This document shows, in pieces, positions 6,425 through 37,377 of a DNA stretch of 39,267 nucleotides. Within the stretch, counting starts at the first letter, position 1; each line of letters begins with the position of its first letter. Origin of the DNA: a virus (Duplodnaviria > Caudoviricetes). The notes beneath the pieces were generated by a model. The model ran no database searches, was not told where the DNA came from, and saw nothing but the letters and a program-made list of their open reading frames with translations. Made by a program: the position numbers and the translations under genes. The stretch covers positions 1-39,267 of IMG/VR virus record IMGVR_UViG_3300025396_000033. One strand, written 5' to 3'.

Positions 6425-6603
6425 TATTCAATTCCAAAATTTGGCGCACCACGATTTAACCGATATTGAATCTCATATAATTCATCAGAAAACGTAGACT
6501 TTTCAGTTTCGTCTTTTGAATTCTTAATCTTATTTTTTAATGAGGTTTCCTTATCTTTAAGTTCACTATAAATTTTAGCAATAGTTTTATCACGCTTGCT
6601 CAT
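6424..6603 (-). CDS. Hypothetical protein (59 aa)
   Basis: Manual ORF MSKRDKTIAK...NFGIE, coupled at both ends. Confidence 0.6.
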   Translation of the reverse strand: MSKRDKTIAKIYSELKDKETSLKNKIKNSKDETEKSTFSDELYEIQYRLNRGAPNFGIE

Positions 6604-6824
6604 TCTTTCACTCCGAAATGTTCTTTAATTAAATCTGAGGAAAGATAAGGTTCAGCCGAATCAGCGATATTAGCGCATTCCAATATAAGCAACTCGGCAA
6701 ACCGTTCAGCAAAGCAATCTGGAATATACATCTTCTGTAATTCCAAATTGGTGTATTCATCATCTCGAATATAGTCAACATCGCTGACGGCCTTGTCAAA
6801 AAGTTCTTGAATTCGTTTGTTCAT
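6600..6824 (-). CDS. Small HFGVE-family paralog 2
   Basis: MNKRIQEL...ERFAELLILECA...IKEHFGVKE. Confidence 0.7.
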   Translation of the reverse strand: MNKRIQELFDKAVSDVDYIRDDEYTNLELQKMYIPDCFAERFAELLILECANIADSAEPYLSSDLIKEHFGVKE

Positions 6825-6937: not shown

Positions 6938-7362
6938 TACCAACACCACCAAAAAATAATTTGTTCATCGTTGGGGAAATGTTCAGTGACTACTTTACGC
7001 ATAGCAGTTACCAAATCATCTGTCCAGTTAGGATCAGTAGGCTTATATACTTGGACTGCCCATTCACGCAACTGTTCTTTACAGTAGTCCCATTCTTCGT
7101 CATCGTCATGTACTGGGAAATACACAGATTGGTAGCTATCGTTGCGTAGGCGTTCACCCCACAACTCTAAGTAGGCATGCCAATAGTTGCGATAGTCATT
7201 TGATTCTAATACACCCACCCACTTACCGTCTAAGAATGTGCCACCATGTAGTTCACGAAGTGGTTCAATACCTTTAGCAACAAGTAGTTCATTTAGATGT
7301 TTAAGTAGTTCTGGCTGAACATATTCCATCCAATCAAATGTGTCAACTGATTTGCTTTTCAT
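6937..7362 (-). CDS. Hypothetical Trp-rich protein
   Basis: 141 aa ORF, coupled, ends FWWCW. Confidence 0.65.
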   Translation of the reverse strand: MKSKSVDTFDWMEYVQPELLKHLNELLVAKGIEPLRELHGGTFLDGKWVGVLESNDYRNYWHAYLELWGERLRNDSYQSVYFPVHDDDEEWDYCKEQLREWAVQVYKPTDPNWTDDLVTAMRKVVTEHFPNDEQIIFWWCW

Positions 7363-7574
7363 TCTTCAACTCCGAAATGTTCTTTAATCGTTCGCACACA
7401 ACCATTAGCGGCACTACGAACATCACTCAAGCGGCTATCTTTGATAATAGCGTCAGCACATTCCCGCACAATCAACTCGGCGAACTTTTCCAATTCTTCT
7501 GAAAAATTGTCATCAGAATCGCCTCCCCACTCTTTCAACTTAGGGGTGAGTAGTTCCTTGATTCGTTCATTCAT
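7359..7574 (-). CDS. Small HFGVE-family paralog 3
   Basis: MNERIKEL...EKFAELIVRECA...IKEHFGVEE. Confidence 0.7.
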   Translation of the reverse strand: MNERIKELLTPKLKEWGGDSDDNFSEELEKFAELIVRECADAIIKDSRLSDVRSAANGCVRTIKEHFGVEE

Positions 7575-21887: not shown

Positions 21888-21916
21888 ATAGTAGCATATT
21901 TATGCTTTATTGTCAA
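21888..21916 (-). promoter_or_regulatory. sigma70 promoter, probably giving a leaderless uvsE mRNA
   Basis: TTGACA-17 nt-TACTAT, 6 nt before the ATG; the spacer also contains ATAAATA. Confidence 0.75.
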
Positions 21917-22736
21917 CCTTTAGCAAATCTTCCATTGTGTATAGTGATTTCATGTATGGGCTAACATCTTCTAGCACACTACTAGCAATATCTCCCGGTC
22001 TGCGAGGTCCATATTTAATATCAAAGTCTACATTATTGACTTTACAAAACAAATTGACAATCTCTCTAACCGTGTATCCTACACCGTGACCCAAACATTC
22101 TATGCTATTGCTTGGCTTTTCAATTGCAGTCTTCAACGCTTCACATATTTCCATGACATGGACGTAATCTCTTACGCATGTACCATCACCATGAATCGTG
22201 TCATAGTCATTACCGTAGATGGTAAACTCACCCTTTTCAGTAGCCTTCATTAGGTTATAGAACAATCCATCGGGATTGGTTGGTTGATATCCTTCACTAC
22301 CTATTACGTTATAAAATCTAAAACTAGTGTAGGGTATTTCTTTTTTGGTACAGTATTCACGCACAACATCTTCTGCTGCCTTCTTGCTTGTACCATATGC
22401 ACTTTCACATTTTTCAGCAGCACCTGTACTAGCAAGTATAAAACTCTTGTACTTGATATTCTTCAATATATTCAGTGTGCCAATCAAATTTGTTTGGTAA
22501 TAACTTTCAGGATTTGATTCGCTCTCTCCTACATTGACAAGTGCAGCCAAATGTATAACTGCATCATACTCAAATCTACTACCATACAATGAACGAATGT
22601 CTTGTGCATAATGCAAGTTTACATTACGCTGTGGTTGGTTGATATCAAGACCATGAATGTCATAATCTGTTTCTAACAACTTTGTTAAGTGGCTCCCAAT
22701 ATAGCCACTGTTGCCTGTGATTAATATTTTTTTCAT
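21900..22736 (-). CDS. NAD-dependent sugar epimerase/dehydratase (GalE-like)
   Basis: GNSGYIG, HLAA, YGTSK, RFYNV, DGTCVRDYVHV, RRPGD. Confidence 0.9.
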   Translation of the reverse strand: MKKILITGNSGYIGSHLTKLLETDYDIHGLDINQPQRNVNLHYAQDIRSLYGSRFEYDAVIHLAALVNVGESESNPESYYQTNLIGTLNILKNIKYKSFILASTGAAEKCESAYGTSKKAAEDVVREYCTKKEIPYTSFRFYNVIGSEGYQPTNPDGLFYNLMKATEKGEFTIYGNDYDTIHGDGTCVRDYVHVMEICEALKTAIEKPSNSIECLGHGVGYTVREIVNLFCKVNNVDFDIKYGPRRPGDIASSVLEDVSPYMKSLYTMEDLLKVDNKA

Positions 22737-24094
22737 TCAAAACTGAACAGATTTACACCTGCTACTTCCTCCGTTGGTTTGTATGTAGGATCTTTACTTA
22801 AGTATGTGTTGTTGTCGGTATACACAACATTACAAAATTTGTAACGGTTACTCAATACACTTTCGAAATCTTCTCTTGCCAAGTGGTCACGATCTAAGTC
22901 TTTGATGTAATCTTTGTAACATACGGTTTCATATGTATTTACCTTAGCTGCGTTATTATTGCTTCTTTTACCTACAAATTCGTCTAAGAACTTGATCCAA
23001 TCTTGTGCTACTGCTGTGTCTAACCACTGTACATACTTCAATGCACCTGTTTCATAGTGTTCTTGAGGAGTAATATTGTATTCTGATTTAATTGCAATAG
23101 CTACATTATTGATTGAAGTCTTAATGAAATACTTACCATCAAAATTGTCTGACCAGTCTTGTGTATTAAGTACGACACAAGGCATGTGACCTAGACATTC
23201 TAAGAATGCGAATGGATAGTTCTCACGTAGACTTGGCATAAAGAATACACTTGCACTTGTAATGAAGTCTACTTTCTCTTGTCCAGTAATGCCAGCTTTA
23301 ATTTCATAGTCAGTTATACCTGCTTCTTCAAATGCTTTTATAAACTTCTTTTCACCATTTGAGTTAGTCATAACTTTACAAGGAAGACCACACTCTTTCA
23401 TTACTTTAATGTATGCTTCTGGGTTCTTGCCTTCCTCCCAACGACCAATAAACAATACACCTTTACGTGCATTAAAACTAGGTTCAAGTAATCCTCTCTC
23501 GCTCATTGGCATAGGCAACAACTTACAATTTGTTGCACCGTACTTAGTCAGTTCATCAATATTCTTTTGACTCTGTGTACCAATGATGATATCACTAAAC
23601 TCCATGTGCTTGTTGTAGAAATTGTGATAGCTATCCAAGAATACATCACTACCTTGACTTTCACGGAAAATCATACTATGTAAATGTGTATAGAAAACGA
23701 CCGGGATATACTTGTTGACTGTCATAGCATATGCCGCAGTCATTGCTTCTTGTGTATTACACACAATCATGTCGTAGATGTTAGTCTCAAACGCTTTCAA
23801 TATGGCTTTACGAAAGTTGATAATCTTCTCAAAGTTGATTGTATCACTAAATGCAAATGTAGCAGTATGGTCACTATAACGTAATGCATCATTTGGATAT
23901 ACAATGTTTGCACCTGCATTTTTGATTACTTCATCAAATGTACCAGTAGGTTGTTTATCTAAAATAACATCTACTTTCCAACCAATACGACCGCACATTT
24001 CTGTAAAACTTTTACAGAAACTACCAATACCACCGTGAGGAATAAAGTGCTGGTCGCTGATTAAGAATGCAATTCTTTTACTGTACAACTTCAT
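22733..24094 (-). CDS. GT-B (GT4-like) glycosyltransferase
   Basis: GGIG, FIGRWEEGKNP, PSLRENYPFAFLE (EX7E). Confidence 0.85.
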   Translation of the reverse strand: MKLYSKRIAFLISDQHFIPHGGIGSFCKSFTEMCGRIGWKVDVILDKQPTGTFDEVIKNAGANIVYPNDALRYSDHTATFAFSDTINFEKIINFRKAILKAFETNIYDMIVCNTQEAMTAAYAMTVNKYIPVVFYTHLHSMIFRESQGSDVFLDSYHNFYNKHMEFSDIIIGTQSQKNIDELTKYGATNCKLLPMPMSERGLLEPSFNARKGVLFIGRWEEGKNPEAYIKVMKECGLPCKVMTNSNGEKKFIKAFEEAGITDYEIKAGITGQEKVDFITSASVFFMPSLRENYPFAFLECLGHMPCVVLNTQDWSDNFDGKYFIKTSINNVAIAIKSEYNITPQEHYETGALKYVQWLDTAVAQDWIKFLDEFVGKRSNNNAAKVNTYETVCYKDYIKDLDRDHLAREDFESVLSNRYKFCNVVYTDNNTYLSKDPTYKPTEEVAGVNLFSFE

Positions 24095-24314
24095 TGAACT
24101 TATCCTGAATAGACTTTATACATACTGCCTTTGTTGCATTAGCTAGGTCGTAGTCATAAGTAGTGCCACCAAAGGTCATTTTTGCTTCATTAACTGAATC
24201 TATGCATTCATTAACAACTAACTGAATCAAATCATCAAGGCGGTCATAGTAGACCCATTTGCCACTAGTGTCAGTCCCTACTTTGTTTACCAATTCTTTT
24301 GTTTTTTCTTTCAT
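24078..24314 (-). CDS. Small protein, distant HFGVE-family member
   Basis: MKEKTKEL...QLVVNECI...IQDKF mirrors the family architecture. Confidence 0.55.
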   Translation of the reverse strand: MKEKTKELVNKVGTDTSGKWVYYDRLDDLIQLVVNECIDSVNEAKMTFGGTTYDYDLANATKAVCIKSIQDKFNEVVQ

Positions 24315-24538
24315 ACTTTTTCTAACAGTCTCAGTTTAATAAATTCTTCTCTACAAATCCATTTGTAATCAGTAAAAAGTTGCCAATGATGTTTATTGTG
24401 TCCACGATAAGCGCCTTTTAACCATATCCATTTATCAGTCTCTAAACATTTATGTGGTAGAAAACAAAACTTGTATACCCAGTTGCGATTTATGCGTTCC
24501 CATTCAATTAGGGATATTCCCTGGTCGTACTCCATCAG
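24311..24538 (-). CDS. Hypothetical protein
   Basis: Coupled ORF (WVYKFCFLPHKC...WIWLK.AY); exact start uncertain. Confidence 0.55.
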   Translation of the reverse strand: MMEYDQGISLIEWERINRNWVYKFCFLPHKCLETDKWIWLKGAYRGHNKHHWQLFTDYKWICREEFIKLRLLEKV

Positions 24539-25377
24539 GTTCCCCATTCGTTTTTGAAGAGGGGCACTTGTAGTCTATCTGAGTAACGCCATCCTTTTCG
24601 CATTGCCATTTCTGCCACTGCTCTGTTGTTTAGAGCGTACACACTCTCAACCCCACCGCAAGGCATAAGATAAACAGGACCGGTAAAGCCACAGCTACGA
24701 TATTCATTTACAGCCCGTTCTGCTTCCTGTAAGTCTTCTTCTGATGCAACCACGAACTTAAGGTATACAAAGCCCACATTTTGGTATTGACGTATAACAT
24801 CAGGGCGTATTGCTTCATTCCAATCTTCTCCACTTATTGATAGTTTAGGACTTACGCTAAAGGTAAGTGCGTTCTTTTCACGATTTCGTTTCCAGTTTTG
24901 TAAAAACTCAACTAGATCACCGCTCAATTCTTGAGTACCATTTGTTTCAAATGTTAGTTCTTTAAGAGCAGCCATACGATAGTTGCTCAATAAATCAGGA
25001 TAGCTTTTTTGCCAACCTAATAACGGTTCACCGCCTGTGATAACCAAGTGCTCATCCATCCAACGCTTGTGAGGAAGTATATCCATAATGCTATCAACAA
25101 TACCACTTGACTCAATCACAGGACTAAGATCCTTAAAACGAGGGTCCCAACTAGCGTAACTATCGCATCCTGTGCTGACGAGAGGAAGTTCTTTGTATGA
25201 GTTATATTTTTCTGGTTGTACATTAAATCTCTCTACTGACAACTCACCTTTAGGCATTCCAAAGCCATCACACTTGAAGTTGCAACCAAATGTGCGTAAG
25301 AACACACTTGGTACACCCATGTAACGACCTTCACCTTGTATACTGTAAAACAGTTCTGATACTTTAATTTTGCTCAT
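24535..25377 (-). CDS. queE: 7-carboxy-7-deazaguanine synthase (radical SAM)
   Basis: [22 protein letters not shown]...GCDS, ITGGEPL, FETNGT, VSPKL, LKFVV; start MSKIKV at 25377 with GGAG RBS. Confidence 0.92.
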
Positions 25378-25555
25378 TTTTACTCCACAATTCAAGTGCT
25401 TTGGCAGGATAAATCTGAACAGAGCCTTTTTCTGTATCACTTTCAACTGCATAACCTTCTGGAGTTAACTCAGTTGAATATGTACCAACAACTGTTCCGT
25501 GCCACTGTGAACCTGAAACCTTTTTTACTAAATCACCTAATTTAAATTTGCTCAT
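25364..25555 (-). CDS. dfrB: Type II (R67/DfrB-family) dihydrofolate reductase homolog
   Basis: [52 protein letters not shown] matches the R67 core ([52 protein letters not shown], recalled), including catalytic VQIY. Confidence 0.88.
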
Positions 25556-26049
25556 GCGAATAAATCCTCATTCCATTCTCTGTGGCCTTCCCTAAAAGCC
25601 ATGTTACTTTGTGTTTCTCTAACTTCTACCCTATAGCACCAAAGTCGTTCTGCTTCTCCTGGACCCCACATGTCAGGAATGTAAACTCCATTGATATACT
25701 TATAAAGCATATTGCTAAGACCTTCACAACCTAGTTTGGATAGCACAACAATTTTTGCCATGTTTTTTTCTTGTAATAGTTTAAATGTTTCAAGTTCCGG
25801 GTCATCAGAACTGACCAGAAGGGTATGGTCGAACATATCCTCTAACAACTTCTTCAATTCTTTTAGTCCGCCATAGTCTGCGGCCCAATGGCGAACATCA
25901 AGGTCGTTGGTACCAAAGTAGAACTTCATACTGAAGCTGTAACCATGAATTAGATTGCAATGGCTGTCGGCTCGCCATTGACGATAAGCGCATGGAAATG
26001 CGTCATGGTACTCTTTAGTACTTGTATATTTGTATGTTATTGGTTGCAT
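25552..26049 (-). CDS. queD: 6-carboxy-5,6,7,8-tetrahydropterin synthase
   Basis: C.LIHGY zinc-binding motif, D.G.LK...FDH.LL, GCE, V.VRET. Confidence 0.9.
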
Positions 26050-26067
26050 TAATTTTCTCCTATGTTA

Positions 26068-26096
26068 ATTATAGCATAGGCGGCAGAATTTATCAA
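26068..26096 (-). promoter_or_regulatory. sigma70 promoter embedded in structured queD leader
   Basis: TTGATA-17 nt-TATAAT with extended TGn; overlaps inverted repeats (see findings). Confidence 0.6.
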
Positions 26097-26123
26097 GCGG
26101 GTTGACGCCCAAGACCGCTATCT

Positions 26124-26585
26124 TTATTTACCTTTTTGTGCTTCTGCGACCCTTTTTCTTAGTCCACTTGAACTGAATGAATGGTCACGACTATTGAACA
26201 CATGGTTGATACCTTTTTGAGCACCTTGAGCACGACCGGTAAAGTCTTGGCTTTGATACTCTACACCTAAGATACGAACATCAATAGGAAGAATCAATAT
26301 CAAGTCAATCAAATCTTGTTCCGTTTGGTAAACAACGATTTCATCAACATAACGGCATGCCGCCAATTGAATTTGTCTTTCCACCACTGATTGTACAGGT
26401 TTGTTTTTTGTATCTGGTCTATCAATTGTGGGGTCAGTCTGGAGCCCTGCAATAAGATAGTCGCAATGATTTTTAGCCTCAGATAGCATAGCAATATGCC
26501 CCGCATGAAGTAGGTCAAAAGTTGAGAAAGTAATTCCAATTATCTTTCCATCCTGTTTAAGTTTTTTAATTTTATTGAATATCAT
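26124..26585 (-). CDS. TagD-like (glycerol-3-phosphate) cytidylyltransferase
   Basis: FDLLHAGH (HxGH), L..GL.TD, ER...L.ACRYVDE, R.HSFSSS.LR. Confidence 0.88.
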   Translation of the reverse strand: MIFNKIKKLKQDGKIIGITFSTFDLLHAGHIAMLSEAKNHCDYLIAGLQTDPTIDRPDTKNKPVQSVVERQIQLAACRYVDEIVVYQTEQDLIDLILILPIDVRILGVEYQSQDFTGRAQGAQKGINHVFNSRDHSFSSSGLRKRVAEAQKGK

Positions 26586-26848
26586 ATTAACTCGCTAAGT
26601 TCTTCTACTAATGGTTCTGGTTCACCAAATTCACCAAAGCCCCATGTTAATTCGTACTCTTTACCTGCATGAAAATATGTTTCAGTAAAGGTTCGTTGAT
26701 TGTTGCTTGACTCAGCTGGCTCGACTAACGCAAGAAGTGTAAGCATGTGTTCACGCTCAATACCTTCTAATGTCCTACGCTTTTTCATGCCTATACTTTT
26801 AAGAAAGGCAAGTGCTTCTTCTTTTGAACTAAAAGGTGAACGATTCAT
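26582..26848 (-). CDS. Hypothetical protein
   Basis: Likely start MNRSPF, ATGA-coupled. Confidence 0.55.
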   Translation of the reverse strand: MNRSPFSSKEEALAFLKSIGMKKRRTLEGIEREHMLTLLALVEPAESSNNQRTFTETYFHAGKEYELTWGFGEFGEPEPLVEELSELI

Positions 26849-27081
26849 TCTTTTAATGTTCTCCACATTACTCTCTTTTCATTTTCAGTTAAGAATTCTT
26901 GTTCATCAGCAAATGTAGGACTTTCTTTAATGATACTATCAAGTAACCACTTGAGTTTGTACAAGTCTTGTTTAATCATCCATTGTGTGTAGCCATCATT
27001 GTAACGACTATTCAATTCTACACCGCTCATGTAGATTTGATGATGTACTGAATTATAATCCATTGGTTTACGATATCCCAT
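26845..27081 (-). CDS. Hypothetical protein
   Basis: Likely start MGYRKPMD; NDGYTQW.IKQDLY.LK. Confidence 0.6.
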   Translation of the reverse strand: MGYRKPMDYNSVHHQIYMSGVELNSRYNDGYTQWMIKQDLYKLKWLLDSIIKESPTFADEQEFLTENEKRVMWRTLKE

Positions 27082-27238
27082 TTTGTTTATCCAAACATGT
27101 GCAGTTTCTACCTTGATTACAGTCACCGTTACAATTGTTAGTTCGATGCCATGCATTAGTTAAGATAGCTGTTACAATACTGATGAATGGGTTAAGGAAA
27201 TAACCCAGTATCAATCCATAGATGAAGATTTCAACCAT
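27068..27238 (-). CDS. Small TM protein with Cys-rich tail (56 aa)
   Basis: Manual ORF MVEIFIYGLILGYFL...CNGDCNQGRNCTC. Confidence 0.55.
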   Translation of the reverse strand: MVEIFIYGLILGYFLNPFISIVTAILTNAWHRTNNCNGDCNQGRNCTCLDKQNGIS

Positions 27239-27435
27239 CACGCATGACCTTTGTAAATAAGTTGATTGACCATGTCAAGATCAAACTGCAAGTCTGCAAT
27301 GTGATCTTTTAATTTTTGATATTCTTCATTGTGTGGATCACTATTGCTAACAACAATACTCAAGTACATGTTGGCAGCAGCCTCATGTGCTTTGCGTAGT
27401 TCTTGTTCTAACAACAATCTTCTATCTTTTAACAT
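27238..27435 (-). CDS. Small coiled-coil protein
   Basis: Likely start MLKDRR immediately after the folE stop. Confidence 0.55.
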   Translation of the reverse strand: MLKDRRLLLEQELRKAHEAAANMYLSIVVSNSDPHNEEYQKLKDHIADLQFDLDMVNQLIYKGHA

Positions 27436-27436
27436 A

Positions 27437-28114
27437 TCATTTACCCTGACGAGCAATGCTTAAGAACTCTGCTCTGGCAGATGGATCAGTTTTAAAACCA
27501 CCACCTAGACGAACAGTAACAGTTGAACTACCAGTATCTTCTACCCCTCTTGCTGCAACACAGTAGTGTCGGGCGTCAATAAGAACCGCCACATCTTCGG
27601 TTTCAAGAATGTACTGAAGGCTGTGAAAGATTTGCTCAGTGAGCCTCTCTTGAATTTGTGGGCGCTTTGAGAAGTATTCAACGATTCTATTAATTTTTGA
27701 TAAGCCCAAGACTTTCTGTTTGGGCACGTAAGCAACAGTTGCAAGACCGTCGATAACGACAAAATGATGTTCGCAATTGCTTTGTACCGACACATTGCGC
27801 TCAACAACCATTTCGTTGTAATGCATCTTATTATCCACTGTGGTGCATTTTGGGAATGCTTCATAATCTAAACCCCACATCACCTCATTTACAAACATTT
27901 TGGCAACACGCTTAGGTGTTTCAATCAAGCTATCATCGGTTAAATCTAACCCTAGTGCTTGCATTATAGCAGTAAAATGAAGTTCGATCTTTTCAATCTT
28001 TTCTTTACGGTCAAGATTGTTTTGTATTGTAGGTGTTTCAACACCCATTTTGACTAAGTGCTCATGCACTTTAAGACCCAGTTCTGGATCGCATTTTGTT
28101 TTATTAAAACTCAT
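27437..28114 (-). CDS. folE: GTP cyclohydrolase I
   Basis: ETPKRVAKM, SNCEHH, LGLSKINRIV, RPQIQERLT, HYCV..RGV, RAEFL. Confidence 0.97.
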   Translation of the reverse strand: MSFNKTKCDPELGLKVHEHLVKMGVETPTIQNNLDRKEKIEKIELHFTAIMQALGLDLTDDSLIETPKRVAKMFVNEVMWGLDYEAFPKCTTVDNKMHYNEMVVERNVSVQSNCEHHFVVIDGLATVAYVPKQKVLGLSKINRIVEYFSKRPQIQERLTEQIFHSLQYILETEDVAVLIDARHYCVAARGVEDTGSSTVTVRLGGGFKTDPSARAEFLSIARQGK

Positions 28115-28149
28115 AGATAACCCTCCGTTGTGATGGTTTTATTTTGACG

Positions 28150-28181
28150 TTGTGCAACCTTTGTGTTGCACAAGTATTTAT
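28150..28181 (-). promoter_or_regulatory. T4-late-like promoter (ATAAATA) followed by a 9-bp hairpin
   Basis: ATAAATAC then TTGTGCAAC-6 nt-GTTGCACAA, upstream of folE. Confidence 0.55.
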
Positions 28182-28186
28182 CACAA

Positions 28187-28384
28187 TTACTTAGCTGCTG
28201 CTTTTTCTGCGGCACGTGCATTTTTAGTTTCAGTGATTTCGTTACGGCGTGCCTTAACTGCTTTAGCCAATTCACCTAATGCTTTACGAGCACGAGTACC
28301 TGCTGCATTGTTACCTTTTTCAAATTTTTCACTTTCAGCCAAGTATGCTTCCAAGTGTGTGTTAATATCATTGTGTGCGCTCAT
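28187..28384 (-). CDS. Histone H1-like (Hc1-type) nucleoid protein
   Basis: EKFEKGNNAAGTRARKAL.EL.K..K..R.EI; Ala/Lys-rich; AAGGAG RBS. Confidence 0.75.
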   Translation of the reverse strand: MSAHNDINTHLEAYLAESEKFEKGNNAAGTRARKALGELAKAVKARRNEITETKNARAAEKAAAK

Positions 28385-28396
28385 AGTATTCTCCTT

Positions 28397-28843
28397 TTAA
28401 TTTGCGTCTTTTGGATCAGGTTCACCGCTGAACTCTTCACCTGTATCTTCATTTGTAAGAACTAGTGGACCAGTGAACATATATTCAGTGTCATCAAGTG
28501 ACCAACCTAATTCTTCTACACCTTCAAAATAGTTTTCTTCCCATGCTTCGTCAAATTCTTCCAAGTCTTCATCAGTACAATTGCGACCTTTTTCAGAATC
28601 TGCCCAGCAACCATCAATCATGTCTTCCATTTCCCACGATTCATTGGCAATGTCTACCCAACCAAGTTCATACCCGCCTTCGTTTTTCAACTCTTCGGGT
28701 GTGAGTGGGATCGTATCTGATTCAATGTAAAAAGTGGCCCAACGATAACCTTCTTCACGAATGATTTGTTTATCATCTTTGTACCAATATTGTGTTTCAA
28801 TTGCAGACTTTTTATATTTAGGTGATAGTTTCCAAGTAGCCAT
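28397..28843 (-). CDS. Acidic hypothetical protein
   Basis: 148 aa D/E/W-rich ORF. Confidence 0.65.
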   Translation of the reverse strand: MATWKLSPKYKKSAIETQYWYKDDKQIIREEGYRWATFYIESDTIPLTPEELKNEGGYELGWVDIANESWEMEDMIDGCWADSEKGRNCTDEDLEEFDEAWEENYFEGVEELGWSLDDTEYMFTGPLVLTNEDTGEEFSGEPDPKDAN

Positions 28844-28844
28844 T

Positions 28845-30032
28845 TTAGTATTTGCTTTCTTTAGTGTGTTTACGATAGTCAGTGCTCATACGTAGCATTG
28901 TATCACCCTTGCCCTCAAGAATGTCAACGATACGGTCAATCGTACCGTCATTGTAGTCACTGATTTTACCCATTAACTCGCTTGATTTTTCAAGTAACTT
29001 TTCAAGTTTGTCAAGCGCATCTTCAATAGACCAAGGAATATACAAGCGAGTATTATCATTGCTAAAAGTTTCTGGGAAACTACGATAAGCAGGATAAAGC
29101 ACATTACAGCCCAGAGCATCTGCCTCCGAGACAGTATTACTGACCCAATCTTGTAATGCACAGTTAAATACCACGCGGCTATCATTAACAATGTTATAGT
29201 AATCATTCTTGTCTAAGTCCTCATAGATACTCAACATACCAATAGCATGAAGTCGTTTAGTACGATCCATATAGCTATCATTATTGCTTTTGAGTTTTGC
29301 ACCACTACAGATACAGAATTCTACACTTGATCCTGGATGGCGATTATACCATGCTTCAATGATATCCATATAGAAGTCTGGTTGCTTTTCTTGATCCCAT
29401 CTTGCACTAAACACAACACGATGTTTGCGGTCACTGAATGGCTTGATTGAATCAACACGACTCTGTACTTCACTCTTACCGAATGCTAGTCCACTGATAT
29501 TGTAGATTGGGGCTTCCCAACCTGCAATCTTCATGTGCATGACCATTTCTTCATTAGTTGCGAGGATTCCACCTTCACTTTGGCGGACAGCTTCACATAC
29601 CATCTGTTCGTAGGATGCCATAAACTTTGACATGCCCCAGACATGGACAAAGTCATCAGGATCAATTGACTGCGCCAAGCATCGTACAAAAATCTTTGGA
29701 CGATGTGACTGAGGAACTTGATTAAGAATGTAAGGCAAACTCTCAAAGCCCGGTTGAAACATATCTTCAAAGTAGATAACATCATCACTGGTAACTTCTC
29801 CTGCCTTCATCATCTTAACTAAGTTCATCAATTGACTCATGCCAAAGTATGAACGACCATGTGCATCAAGTACTTGCCCGGTAACAATTGCTTGATCGTT
29901 ACTTAGTGTTTCACCACTTACAATTTGATAGTTGATACCACGTTTCTCAAAGACTCGTGTATTCCACTCAGTCAATTGAAGGGTATATCTTGCTTTATAG
30001 GGTTCAAGACCCATGTAGAATAATTTACGCAT
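28845..30032 (-). CDS. GT-B glycosyltransferase-like protein, possibly DNA-modifying
   Basis: FSARWDQEKQP, QDWVSNTVSEA (DX7E), YP..RSFPE; start MRKLFY is TAATG-coupled. Confidence 0.8.
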   Translation of the reverse strand: MRKLFYMGLEPYKARYTLQLTEWNTRVFEKRGINYQIVSGETLSNDQAIVTGQVLDAHGRSYFGMSQLMNLVKMMKAGEVTSDDVIYFEDMFQPGFESLPYILNQVPQSHRPKIFVRCLAQSIDPDDFVHVWGMSKFMASYEQMVCEAVRQSEGGILATNEEMVMHMKIAGWEAPIYNISGLAFGKSEVQSRVDSIKPFSDRKHRVVFSARWDQEKQPDFYMDIIEAWYNRHPGSSVEFCICSGAKLKSNNDSYMDRTKRLHAIGMLSIYEDLDKNDYYNIVNDSRVVFNCALQDWVSNTVSEADALGCNVLYPAYRSFPETFSNDNTRLYIPWSIEDALDKLEKLLEKSSELMGKISDYNDGTIDRIVDILEGKGDTMLRMSTDYRKHTKESKY

Positions 30033-30238
30033 TATCGGATGATGATATCTGCCCAACCATCTTTTGGTTGTTTACCTGCTAACTGTTTTGTATGTTGACG
30101 ATAGACAAATGATCGCATATCATACAATGTTGCTTCATCAAACTTAAACCCATAGTCTACACAAAATTCTTTGTAGGCTTCTAAGTCTTCAAAGATTTGA
30201 CGGACGCGGTGATTAGGTTGAATGTGTGGTTTTGCCAT
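30032..30238 (-). CDS. Conserved small phage protein
   Basis: IFEDLE.Y..FC..YG..FDE..LY; AGGA RBS. Confidence 0.65.
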   Translation of the reverse strand: MAKPHIQPNHRVRQIFEDLEAYKEFCVDYGFKFDEATLYDMRSFVYRQHTKQLAGKQPKDGWADIIIR

Positions 30239-30250
30239 TTTGTTTTCCTA

Positions 30251-30706
30251 TTAAATTTTTAGGTTGTTGTAAGGTTGAGTTGTGTTGTAATGTATCGTAG
30301 CACCATTCTCATTGTCTTCTGAAACAGTGATAGTGATATTACGATCTGGATATCGAGTTGCAATAACCTCATAAAGGTCATCACTAATCATTTCACAACT
30401 TTTGTAATCCAATGCAAGGATGCCTTGAGAATATTGATTCTCTAACCATCGTTTGAATTGAATAAACTCAATATCACGGTCGTTGTGAAATACTTCAATC
30501 GTCACTTCAAAGTGAAAGATGTGACGATGTGGAGTTGCTAAAAAGCTAACGTCATACTCATCACCTGTTGCCAAGTTAGGGTCTGTCGCTGCTGCTGGGT
30601 ATTTGTGAATACCCTCTTTTTGAAATCTTACAAAAATTGTACGAATGGCTTTGTCTTTGATACGTGTACGTTGTTCAAAAAGTGCCTGTTGTCTTTGTTC
30701 TTCCAT
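30251..30706 (-). CDS. dpdL: QueD-paralog T-fold protein, DpdL-like (candidate CDG decarboxylase)
   Basis: LATPHRHIF fits the LxxxHRHxF signature I recall for DpdL; also DRDIEF, SCEM, VSEDNENG. Confidence 0.7.
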   Translation of the reverse strand: MEEQRQQALFEQRTRIKDKAIRTIFVRFQKEGIHKYPAAATDPNLATGDEYDVSFLATPHRHIFHFEVTIEVFHNDRDIEFIQFKRWLENQYSQGILALDYKSCEMISDDLYEVIATRYPDRNITITVSEDNENGATIHYNTTQPYNNLKI

Positions 30707-30709
30707 GAT

Positions 30710-32194
30710 TTACTCAAACTTAAAAAATTCGTTAAACTTTGTTCTAGCGTTAATTGCTTTCTTACCGCTGAACCCCTGACTACCACTAGACATTTGTGTC
30801 CATAATTGACTGTGTGCATCAATGATATCCATACTATCTTTGCGGGTCTTTTGAGCAAACACTTCATTAACAACTTCACGGAATGTTTTACCAGTATCAC
30901 GTTCGTGAATCATTGCAGGTGTAATACCTTGCTCGTATCTACGATTCGCTTCTTGTACAGCATAGATATGTTGATAAACATTATGACTTTGAATCAGTGT
31001 ATAACTCAATGTATCCCAACTAGTTTTAGTTTCTTTACCATGAGCACCGATGAAACCCTGCCCTCTGTAACAAATATCTTTCATAAGTAGTATATCAGTT
31101 ACAGGACTGTCTGTAAACATAGTATGGATACCGTCAGCAATACAAGCATCACTATACTTACGCATATCACCTGCGTATGTAGGTGTGATACCATAATGCT
31201 TGCCTTCTGCTGTTTTAGTCATACTATATGCCCACTTTTTATTATTTTCAATTGTGTTATTAAAGTATGCCAAACCCTTAGCAGCACTAAAGAATGGGCT
31301 TGCACAGTCAAAAGTAATTTGCAAGTTTGGATTGTGATTTGCACGTATTGCTTTTTGGATATCAGTAAACAACACAGCATACTCTAAGATAGATACACCC
31401 AAACAATGAATCAAATCATGTTTGCCTGGTTTTAGTAATCCATCATAGATAATGTCAACCATTCTACGTAGTGTCAAATGAATGTCAATTTTGTTTTGAC
31501 CACCAAATGCCCAACCATTAAAGTGATTGTCTGGATAGATATTTGGATCACAATACTTCTTCATTTCATTATACCACTCATCACTTTCAGTATGATTAGT
31601 ACCTTGAAGAACGTTTAAGAACTTGCAACTACCATTACGATTCTTAATAAAATATTCGTTGTTAATATGTGTAGCGTCAATGGCATCCTGAATGTTAGTA
31701 ATGCCATGAACCTTATGCATTTCTTGATTCAAGAAACTTTGTGATGGGATATCTAAACACATACCATAATCCATATATGTGTCCATCCAGTTCAATACAG
31801 CTTTACGCTTAATCATTGCTTTAGGATCGTTGGGGTCTTTCCAATCAGCAGGCCATTGGCCTTTAAGAATTTGAAAACCACCACTATCACCTAACATGAA
31901 TGTACCTTCTTCACGCTTGCGAATGATACTTTCATTTGGATTATCTTTTGTAGTGTCTAAGTCAGCATGACCTGCACTATACAAACCCCACTTATAAGTG
32001 TATAAGCCTTCTTTGCTGTTTAAGAAGTTTAGTTTTTCTACATCGCCGTTGAAACTTGCAGGGATGCGTTCTTTGGGAAAGTAATCTTCTCCCTCTCGTT
32101 GCTTACCCAAGCCAGCGATATAGAAACTGCTGACTGCGGGTAAGAACAATGCCCATTCTGGGTTATGTTGACTTGATAAATTTACTTGTTCCAT
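30710..32194 (-). CDS. dpdA: TGT-fold base-exchange enzyme (DpdA-like DNA 7-deazaguanine transglycosylase)
   Basis: TGT motifs in order: DSGGFQ, CLDIP, VLQG, WAFGG, HCLG, TFDCASP; lacks the CxCxxC zinc site of tRNA TGT. Confidence 0.8.
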   Translation of the reverse strand: MEQVNLSSQHNPEWALFLPAVSSFYIAGLGKQREGEDYFPKERIPASFNGDVEKLNFLNSKEGLYTYKWGLYSAGHADLDTTKDNPNESIIRKREEGTFMLGDSGGFQILKGQWPADWKDPNDPKAMIKRKAVLNWMDTYMDYGMCLDIPSQSFLNQEMHKVHGITNIQDAIDATHINNEYFIKNRNGSCKFLNVLQGTNHTESDEWYNEMKKYCDPNIYPDNHFNGWAFGGQNKIDIHLTLRRMVDIIYDGLLKPGKHDLIHCLGVSILEYAVLFTDIQKAIRANHNPNLQITFDCASPFFSAAKGLAYFNNTIENNKKWAYSMTKTAEGKHYGITPTYAGDMRKYSDACIADGIHTMFTDSPVTDILLMKDICYRGQGFIGAHGKETKTSWDTLSYTLIQSHNVYQHIYAVQEANRRYEQGITPAMIHERDTGKTFREVVNEVFAQKTRKDSMDIIDAHSQLWTQMSSGSQGFSGKKAINARTKFNEFFKFE

Positions 32195-36439: not shown

Positions 36440-36844
36440 TTACCCTTTGTAGCCTTTAGGTAAGATGTGTTTAGATTGTCCTGAACGGTTCCATGACTGC
36501 CACATTCTTTCACCTTGGTCGGTTTGCATATCACTAGGAATAATGTCGTTGCCCAACATCTTGGCATACGCATACATGTTAGTTGCAATATTCTGACCTT
36601 GATAGTTTTTATTTACCCAGGTGTTTTGACTAATCAACGCTTTGTCATGTGGTTCTTCTGCAAGTTCGGCTTCAGCAACTACTTTTTTACCATCGTATAC
36701 AGTGATGATAAGTTGGTTACCCCAACCAGTATTGTTTTCTGTTGTAGCAACATATCTAAGCCCATGTATCTCTAATTCATGTTTGAAGTTAGAATGATAG
36801 ATATCTGGGTTTACTGTTTCGTTTATAAATTCACTTGCTCTCAT
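36440..36844 (-). CDS. GNAT-fold protein with MRASEF N-terminus (putative head-internal protein)
   Basis: V..NYQGQNIAT.MY (motif A-like), SD.QT.QG.RMW. Confidence 0.6.
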   Translation of the reverse strand: MRASEFINETVNPDIYHSNFKHELEIHGLRYVATTENNTGWGNQLIITVYDGKKVVAEAELAEEPHDKALISQNTWVNKNYQGQNIATNMYAYAKMLGNDIIPSDMQTDQGERMWQSWNRSGQSKHILPKGYKG

Positions 36845-37377
36845 TTTGTCACCGGGTTTCCAAATACTTGTTCACGAATCTTTCTACCATCTACGATTCG
36901 CTCGTAGTTCCCATTATTATCTAATAGTGTTAGATTACTATTTGGAAACAGTTGTTGTAATGTTTGTTCATCGGTAACAGGATTCAATCCTTGCTTACCT
37001 AATGTCCTTGCCATAGCATCACTTGATTCAATCCAAACACCCGGTTTAGTCAATAGATTTTTAACTCTATTAATAACCTTTTGTTTTGATTCAGTTTTGC
37101 CATCATGACCAATGCCTTGAATCTTGTAACCAGTCCAAGATTCATTTGGTCTTGCTCTACGATAGAATACAGTACAGTCTAAATTTGGATCTGGGTCCCA
37201 ATCTAATGCTACCCAATCACTTGCTGCAACTTGACTACTATTTTGAACAAACGAACCCAAGTTTGTATTCTTATATGCGTTATGAACTAAGTCAATCAAA
37301 TTGTTGGCCCACTCATGTTTCTCATTAGAGGTAACAAGTAGTTGCCAACGATTCTTGACTAGTTCACTTGCTCTCAT
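36841..37377 (-). CDS. Hypothetical protein with MRASEL N-terminus
   Basis: LV.NAY...G, GHDG; coupled. Confidence 0.6.
   Translation of the reverse strand: MRASELVKNRWQLLVTSNEKHEWANNLIDLVHNAYKNTNLGSFVQNSSQVAASDWVALDWDPDPNLDCTVFYRRARPNESWTGYKIQGIGHDGKTESKQKVINRVKNLLTKPGVWIESSDAMARTLGKQGLNPVTDEQTLQQLFPNSNLTLLDNNGNYERIVDGRKIREQVFGNPVTK

Follow-up and report, generated by a model that had tools for sequence, protein, structure and literature searches.

An optional R67/DfrB-type dihydrofolate reductase gene in the 7-deazaguanine cluster of a large phage, with a possible role in folate recycling

Introduction

Why a gene for a dihydrofolate reductase (DHFR) of the R67/DfrB type lies between queD and queE in a phage 7-deazaguanine cluster is the question raised by this locus. 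The gene is located in a stretch of 39,267 nucleotides, hereafter the window, which represents part of a large phage genome whose complete relatives are about 350-367 kb. A reading made previously from the sequence alone described DfrB as known mainly from integrons and took its position as a sign of an ancestral role in reducing dihydropterins. The former description is outdated, as phage DfrB homologs were published in 2023 and 2025 and 20 viral homologs are reported in the available sections of PMC12486381. The same sections propose that viral DfrBs substitute for folA in support of ThyA and describe the native role of DfrB as still open. The native function is also called open in the accessible part of PMC11662351, where clinical-type dfrB is placed in Burkholderiales. 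A term search of PMC10432401 gave no mention of phage. In a search of titles and the beginnings of abstracts that covered few subscription papers, no paper was found that connects dfrB with que or dpd genes; literature searches found no related paper for R67 DHFR with dihydrobiopterin and returned nothing for oxidation of CPH4.

Results and Discussion

The dfrB gene and its junctions

The following features were located at the junctions of dfrB.

25364..25555, minus strand: dfrB, stand-alone R67/DfrB-type dihydrofolate reductase of 63 residues (PF06442, PDB sequence matches, model)
25552..26049, minus strand: queD, CPH4 synthase (PF01242, E 1.9e-14; phrog_2389)
24535..25377, minus strand: queE, radical-SAM CDG synthase (phrog_2076, E 1.3e-50; junction alignment)
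25538..25555, minus strand: repeat copy 1, the first 18 nt of dfrB (imperfect direct repeat, 16/18)
25360..25377, minus strand: repeat copy 2, nt 1-18 of queE, located 178 nt from copy 1
25565..25569, minus strand: GAGGA within the 3' end of queD, likely the dfrB ribosome-binding site from its sequence

The gene is on the minus strand, the plus frame being closed at 25364-25555. As the sequence-only reading had stated, the 63-residue ORF is coupled to queD, with the dfrB ATG overlapping the queD stop codon as ATGA (25552-25555), and it overlaps the start of queE at 25377, into which the last 14 nt of dfrB run. Homologs of QueE begin at the MSK of position 25377; the mechanical ORF call gives 25452. 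The resemblance between the first 18 nt of dfrB and of queE is uncommon, with 16/18 identity reached by 2 of 2415 pairs of starts within the window. Besides the window, the repeat is present only in the loci L081 and L082 (16/18) and, at 14/18, in L083. It was rejected as a general mechanism of insertion since it is absent from the other dfrB slots, and the sequences suggest that a crossover particular to this lineage took place at the start of queE, by which dfrB would probably have been placed in the window lineage through the similar start codons of the two genes.

Elsewhere in the window, the adjacent genes at 36440-36844 and 36841-37377 match at 16 of their first 18 nt, and the ORFs at 6600-6824 and 7359-7574 are small members of a paralogous family with many copies in L550.

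Identity and predicted structure of DfrB

The identity of the protein as DfrB was confirmed by a match to Pfam PF06442 (DHFR_2) that is far beyond chance, with an E value of 7.1e-22 and 77.5 bits against a cut-off of 25, and by a phmmer search of PDB sequences that matched R67 structures with an E value of 2.7e-17. Alignment to plasmid DfrB1, which the sequence-only reading had proposed as a check, gave 57% identity with conservation of K32, W38, Y46, T51 and V66-Q67-I68-Y69, where K32, W38 and VQIY correspond to K12, W18 and V46-Q47-I48-Y49 of the window protein. The VQIY motif, located on strand B4 lining the pore, did not vary among the 23 homologs aligned. According to the available text of PMC9835603, K32 of DfrB1 binds DHF/NADPH and W38 is at the dimer-dimer interface. 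Substitutions relative to DfrB1 include W45 to Thr and H62 to Glu. The available text of PMC9835603 describes W45 as dispensable and does not include H62 among the residues named as kept in all homologs. Glu at the position of H62, a residue of the DfrB1 dimer-dimer interface, is also found in the 68% identical homolog of a Vibrio phage.

The AlphaFold2 monomer model (pLDDT 88) superimposed on 1vie and 2rk1 with an rmsd of 0.9 Å, and the top seven Foldseek matches were all R67 (TM 0.85-0.88, rmsd 0.9 Å), revealing the SH3-like beta-barrel protomer that DfrB1 forms with residues 24-78. The ratio pN/pS was 0.084 over 35 distinct dfrB alleles from 46 loci, with L083 left out for a one-residue insertion, which indicates that the DfrB protein is under selection; the synonymous divergence between alleles was deep (mean pS 0.67). 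The allele left out (L083:6001-6195), that of the complete genome G001, has a single Val inserted in the strand after W38. The results identify the window gene as a real phage DfrB that is likely active; its product probably assembles into the homotetramer typical of the family and probably uses NADPH to reduce dihydrofolate.

The SH3-like core of 55 residues, K32, W38 and VQIY are shared with R67 DHFR/DfrB1 and the clinical DfrB3, B4, B6 and B10, and the clinical DfrBs listed are 61-67% identical to the window protein over the matched core. In contrast to DfrB1, the window protein has no 20-residue N-terminal tail, and its gene is part of a phage operon that lacks an integron. Among phage proteins, identity to the window DfrB was 71% for the R67 DHFR of Manatee Spring phage ctOsX528, 68% for the protein of Vibrio phage 1.030.O and 62% for gp002 of Sinorhizobium phage phiM9. 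The ctOsX528 and phiM9 proteins are also short and stand-alone, their genes adjoin dNMP kinase or DNA polymerase genes, and queD is in neither record. In the phiM9 record (NC_028676.1, 147896-148246 and 417-620), a second, partial thymidylate-synthase-like match (E 1e-13) lies beside the dNMP kinase gene, approximately 1.4 kb from dfrB across the record ends. DfrB-family proteins of two Pseudomonas megaplasmids (NZ_MF144194.1, 44536-44721; NZ_MN961670.1, 175712-175888) are 71-73% identical to the window allele, both closer to it than the named clinical DfrBs listed.

The homologs of Lemay-St-Denis et al. (DfrB-H3 and DfrB-H4, PMC9835603; PMC12486381) are likewise of the VQIY type and borne by Caudoviricetes. 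The window DfrB differs in being stand-alone and not fused, and its 7-deazaguanine-cluster context is not mentioned in the available sections of those papers. The protein of Vibrio phage 1.030.O would be DfrB-H4, which it matches in the context described. The accessible part of PMC9835603 reports that DfrB-H4, from a Vibrio phage, gave resistance to trimethoprim up to 600 ug/ml and that DfrB-H3, from a Pseudomonas phage, did not express and failed in E. coli; the latter result indicates that sequence alone does not guarantee DHFR activity.

The gene cluster surrounding dfrB

The cluster genes of the window are dpdA-like, dpdL-like, a glycosyltransferase, folE, a cytidylyltransferase, queD, queE, a second glycosyltransferase, an epimerase and uvdE. 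Three of them are referred to below.

27437..28114, minus strand: folE, GTP cyclohydrolase I (PF01227, E 2e-60), another slot of dfrB in relatives
30251..30706, minus strand: dpdL-like, predicted CDG decarboxylase (LxxxHRHxF motif as defined in PMC10516641)
30710..32194, minus strand: dpdA-like transglycosylase (DSGGFQ motif), another slot of dfrB in relatives

The dpdL-like protein is 53% identical to a protein of ACP17 and also matches Cellulophaga phages. The dpdA-like protein is 35% identical to a hypothetical protein of the PA5oct group and gave no Pfam or PHROG match; its DSGGFQ motif is one that we take to be characteristic of TGT. No queC above the cut-off was found in five of five complete relatives. 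The folE, queD, queE, dpdL-like and dpdA-like genes are shared with the DpdL/DpdA system for 2'-deoxy-7-deazaguanine of the Cellulophaga phage phiST and the Acidovorax phage ACP17, although the FolE-QueD-QueE-DpdL-DpdA pathway, in the available text of the publication, names neither DfrB nor any other reductase (PMC10516641), dfrB being an optional insert here. The interleaving of the cluster (21900-32194, minus strand) with the two glycosyltransferases, the epimerase and the cytidylyltransferase recurs in relatives, and may mean that the 7-deazaguanine is further modified.

A gene of the Vut_1 family (PF02592), presumably a queuosine-precursor transporter, was located between queD and dfrB in L086 (5122-5841) and also in L085 and L094. 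The 525-kb contig G081 contains two near-equal copies of queD, 470 kb apart on opposite strands, and is possibly a duplicated or chimeric assembly.

Distribution of dfrB among loci

The position of dfrB between queD and queE is real in the window, but a fixed partnership did not hold up, the position being one of several seats. The count of dfrB at queD that the sequence-only reading had called for was 2 of 80 loci (the best 80 of 600, many of them truncated), and among close relatives anchored on the polymerase, 11 clusters were covered all the way between dpdA and queE, 4 of which contained dfrB. The gene was thus not a constant companion of folE, queD, queE, dpdL and dpdA. When 80 viral dfrB loci were examined, 45 were inside the deazaguanine cluster: dfrB was directly behind queD in 13, further along the queD-queE gap in 8, directly behind folE in 9, shortly behind it in 8 and behind dpdA in 7. 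The exact order queD-dfrB-queE was repeated only in L081 and L090 among 47 loci mapped. In the same phage group dfrB was found behind an exonuclease gene (L124, L383, L570) and behind or near a ligase gene (L360), so that at least five slots are used within one group. The small number of queD loci with dfrB, the several slots and the empty junction of L442, where queD joins queE directly, led to rejection of a fixed queD-dfrB-queE module.

The dfrB alleles group by slot, those of the queD, folE and dpdA slots forming three separate lineages. The gene is patchy on a tree of QueD and QueE, with six changes of presence needed on what is a quick tree that does not separate gain from loss. Cluster genes accompanied dfrB in 46 of 94 distinct viral loci, all of them from this one phage group, and no cluster genes were found within up to 6 kb in the other 48. 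The queD gene was found in none of 10 GenBank dfrB phages, picked from 26 records, with G001 as positive control.

Relation of dfrB to thymidylate synthesis

The phage group has a conserved thymidylate-synthase slot that contains folA and thyA, thyA alone, or thyX; thyA, thyX and folA were all absent from the window. Over two subgroups of loci at this slot (L160-L165, L170, L171, L174, L175-L334), folA was found in 75 of 80 in the one and in 38 of 80 in the other, the latter being the loci near the thyA of G001, about half of which lack folA anyway. The whole-record search covered 50/80 and 40/80 thyA loci, for which long contigs were chosen. Among contigs with both queD and a thymidylate-synthase gene, dfrB was present in 2 of the 7 that have thyA without folA (G001, complete, and G006), in 0 of 27 with folA and thyA, and in 0 of 5 with thyX. 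The association of dfrB with slot type gave a Fisher p value of 0.028 in a sample that is neither random nor phylogenetically independent, since G001 and G006 were chosen as dfrB carriers and the sampled lineages are related. Most contigs are fragments, G030 and G031 seem to be the same phage, and G082 ends 2 kb behind queD. The slot that folA occupies in 75 of the 78 other informative loci is without it in G006. Of the 47 contigs of the group with dfrB, only 2 extend as far as the thymidylate-synthase locus.

These findings are consistent with dfrB being an optional substitute for folA that keeps the phage ThyA supplied with tetrahydrofolate in lineages without folA, a reading to which a probability of about 0.6 is assigned. 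DfrB would reduce dihydrofolate with NADPH to tetrahydrofolate for the ThyA thymidylate synthase, and would take the place of FolA in dTMP synthesis where folA is missing. The proposed link between DfrB and ThyA is in agreement with the finding of folA in none of seven records with dfrB and thyA, and with the location of dfrB directly before thyA in L142 (72%) and L411 (78%), which are from other phages. A 90% identical dfrB was found in a different phage between nrdA (plus a 213-residue ORF) and nrdB (L376:7577-11168), a similarity that suggests recent exchange between phage groups.

Strict complementation of folA by dfrB was rejected, as the predicted dfrB is absent from folA-less G030 and G031, both of which cover queD. 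The gene was also absent from folA-less G080, which is complete, G081 and G021. The lack of dfrB in these five of the seven contigs with thyA and no folA indicates that the gene is optional and not required, and host FolA presumably suffices in such phages. Furthermore, thyA is missing from 7 of the 10 GenBank dfrB phages, and in G001 dfrB is 113 kb from thyA. Folate recycling explains the predominant location of dfrB in the group, within the deazaguanine cluster, only as that of a shared operon; the queD-queE seat would be a recombination slot within a co-expressed operon of DNA metabolism.

Alternative explanations

An alternative explanation is that DfrB returns oxidised CPH4 or a different dihydropterin to the reduced state, or buffers the drain on folate by FolE and QueD, and was recruited beside the pathway genes for this reason. 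The part of this proposed pterin link that stood is positional, in that 45 of the 80 viral loci are within the cluster with slots directly 3' of queD, folE and dpdA. Alone of 61 families, DfrB was directly behind all three of these core genes, accounting for 21 of 31 junctions, although loci centred on queD or dfrB inflate the core-gene junctions and dfrB-centred loci were almost the sole source of the dpdA slot. The three allele lineages also favor the explanation, as does occupation of the same queD slot by Vut_1, an accessory gene whose role we presume to be pathway-related. In 2rk1 the pterin ring is the one part of DHF that is resolved, and other pterins might consequently bind. What did not stand is a constant association: the gene is optional, most clusters are without it, and the 26 DfrB records include none of the 15 dpdL-bearing GenBank phages listed. 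Insertion is busiest in the slots 3' of queD and folE, where 25 and 26 different occupants were counted, among them genes for aldolase II, DAHP synthase, an FAD oxidoreductase, HIT and subtilase proteins. The exonuclease and ligase slots of the same group, the lack of queD in the GenBank carriers and the absence of a reductase from the published pathway also argue against recruitment for pterin chemistry, which is considered doubtful. The companions of dfrB in other phages are thyA, nrdA/nrdB or genes for replication; que genes are never among them. The ancestral pterin role that the sequence-only reading had drawn from position is largely unsupported, and such a role for the family is unlikely given that 48 of 94 loci are without cluster genes and queD is in 0 of 10 GenBank dfrB phages. 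It is similarly improbable, and on thin evidence, that the native job of DfrB in these jumbo phages is pterin repair by re-reduction of oxidised CPH4 or another dihydropterin, which would explain three allele lineages coupled to queD, folE and dpdA, respectively. If true, the R67 fold would gain a natural substrate besides dihydrofolate and thus a new function.

The use of at least five slots within one group is also expected of a mobile mini-gene that lands in permissive junctions of early or middle operons and has a function apart from ThyA, either boosting of host folate or binding by a non-catalytic SH3-like tetramer. Homologs 85-93% identical are found in unrelated phages amid small hypothetical genes, the majority of GenBank carriers are without thyA, and another native function for DfrB homologs is argued to be possible in the available sections of PMC12486381. 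The explanation is possible and rather unlikely, as folA was in no dfrB record tested, tandem dfrB-thyA pairs exist, and the active-site residues are under purifying selection too strong for neutral junk. Far less probable is an antibiotic-selected resistance cassette taken from an integron, an origin that is largely refuted. The window gene is of the same family as the integron dfrB genes, and from this the phenotype is likely shared. However, identity to the listed clinical DfrBs is 61-67% over the core, the GC content is 35% for dfrB versus 38% for the window, and the synonymous divergence noted above is deep. An integron cassette contains a gene of 78 residues with attC near intI, whereas dfrB encodes 63 residues and overlaps both neighbours, which leaves no room for an attC site. 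Inverted repeats at dfrB are weak and within the coding sequence, and no integrase was found among the window proteins scanned with Pfam and PHROG.

The group enlarges the environmental pool of DHFRs that, judged by family membership, are likely insensitive to trimethoprim; no link to clinical alleles was found. That the phage might serve as a reservoir of a resistance gene, as the sequence-only reading suggested, is possible. With one thymidylate-synthase slot that contains folA and thyA, thyA or thyX, and a dfrB that comes and goes, the phage group is a natural comparison, and complete genomes could on account of the slot variation and patchy dfrB test the published hypothesis of folA substitution.
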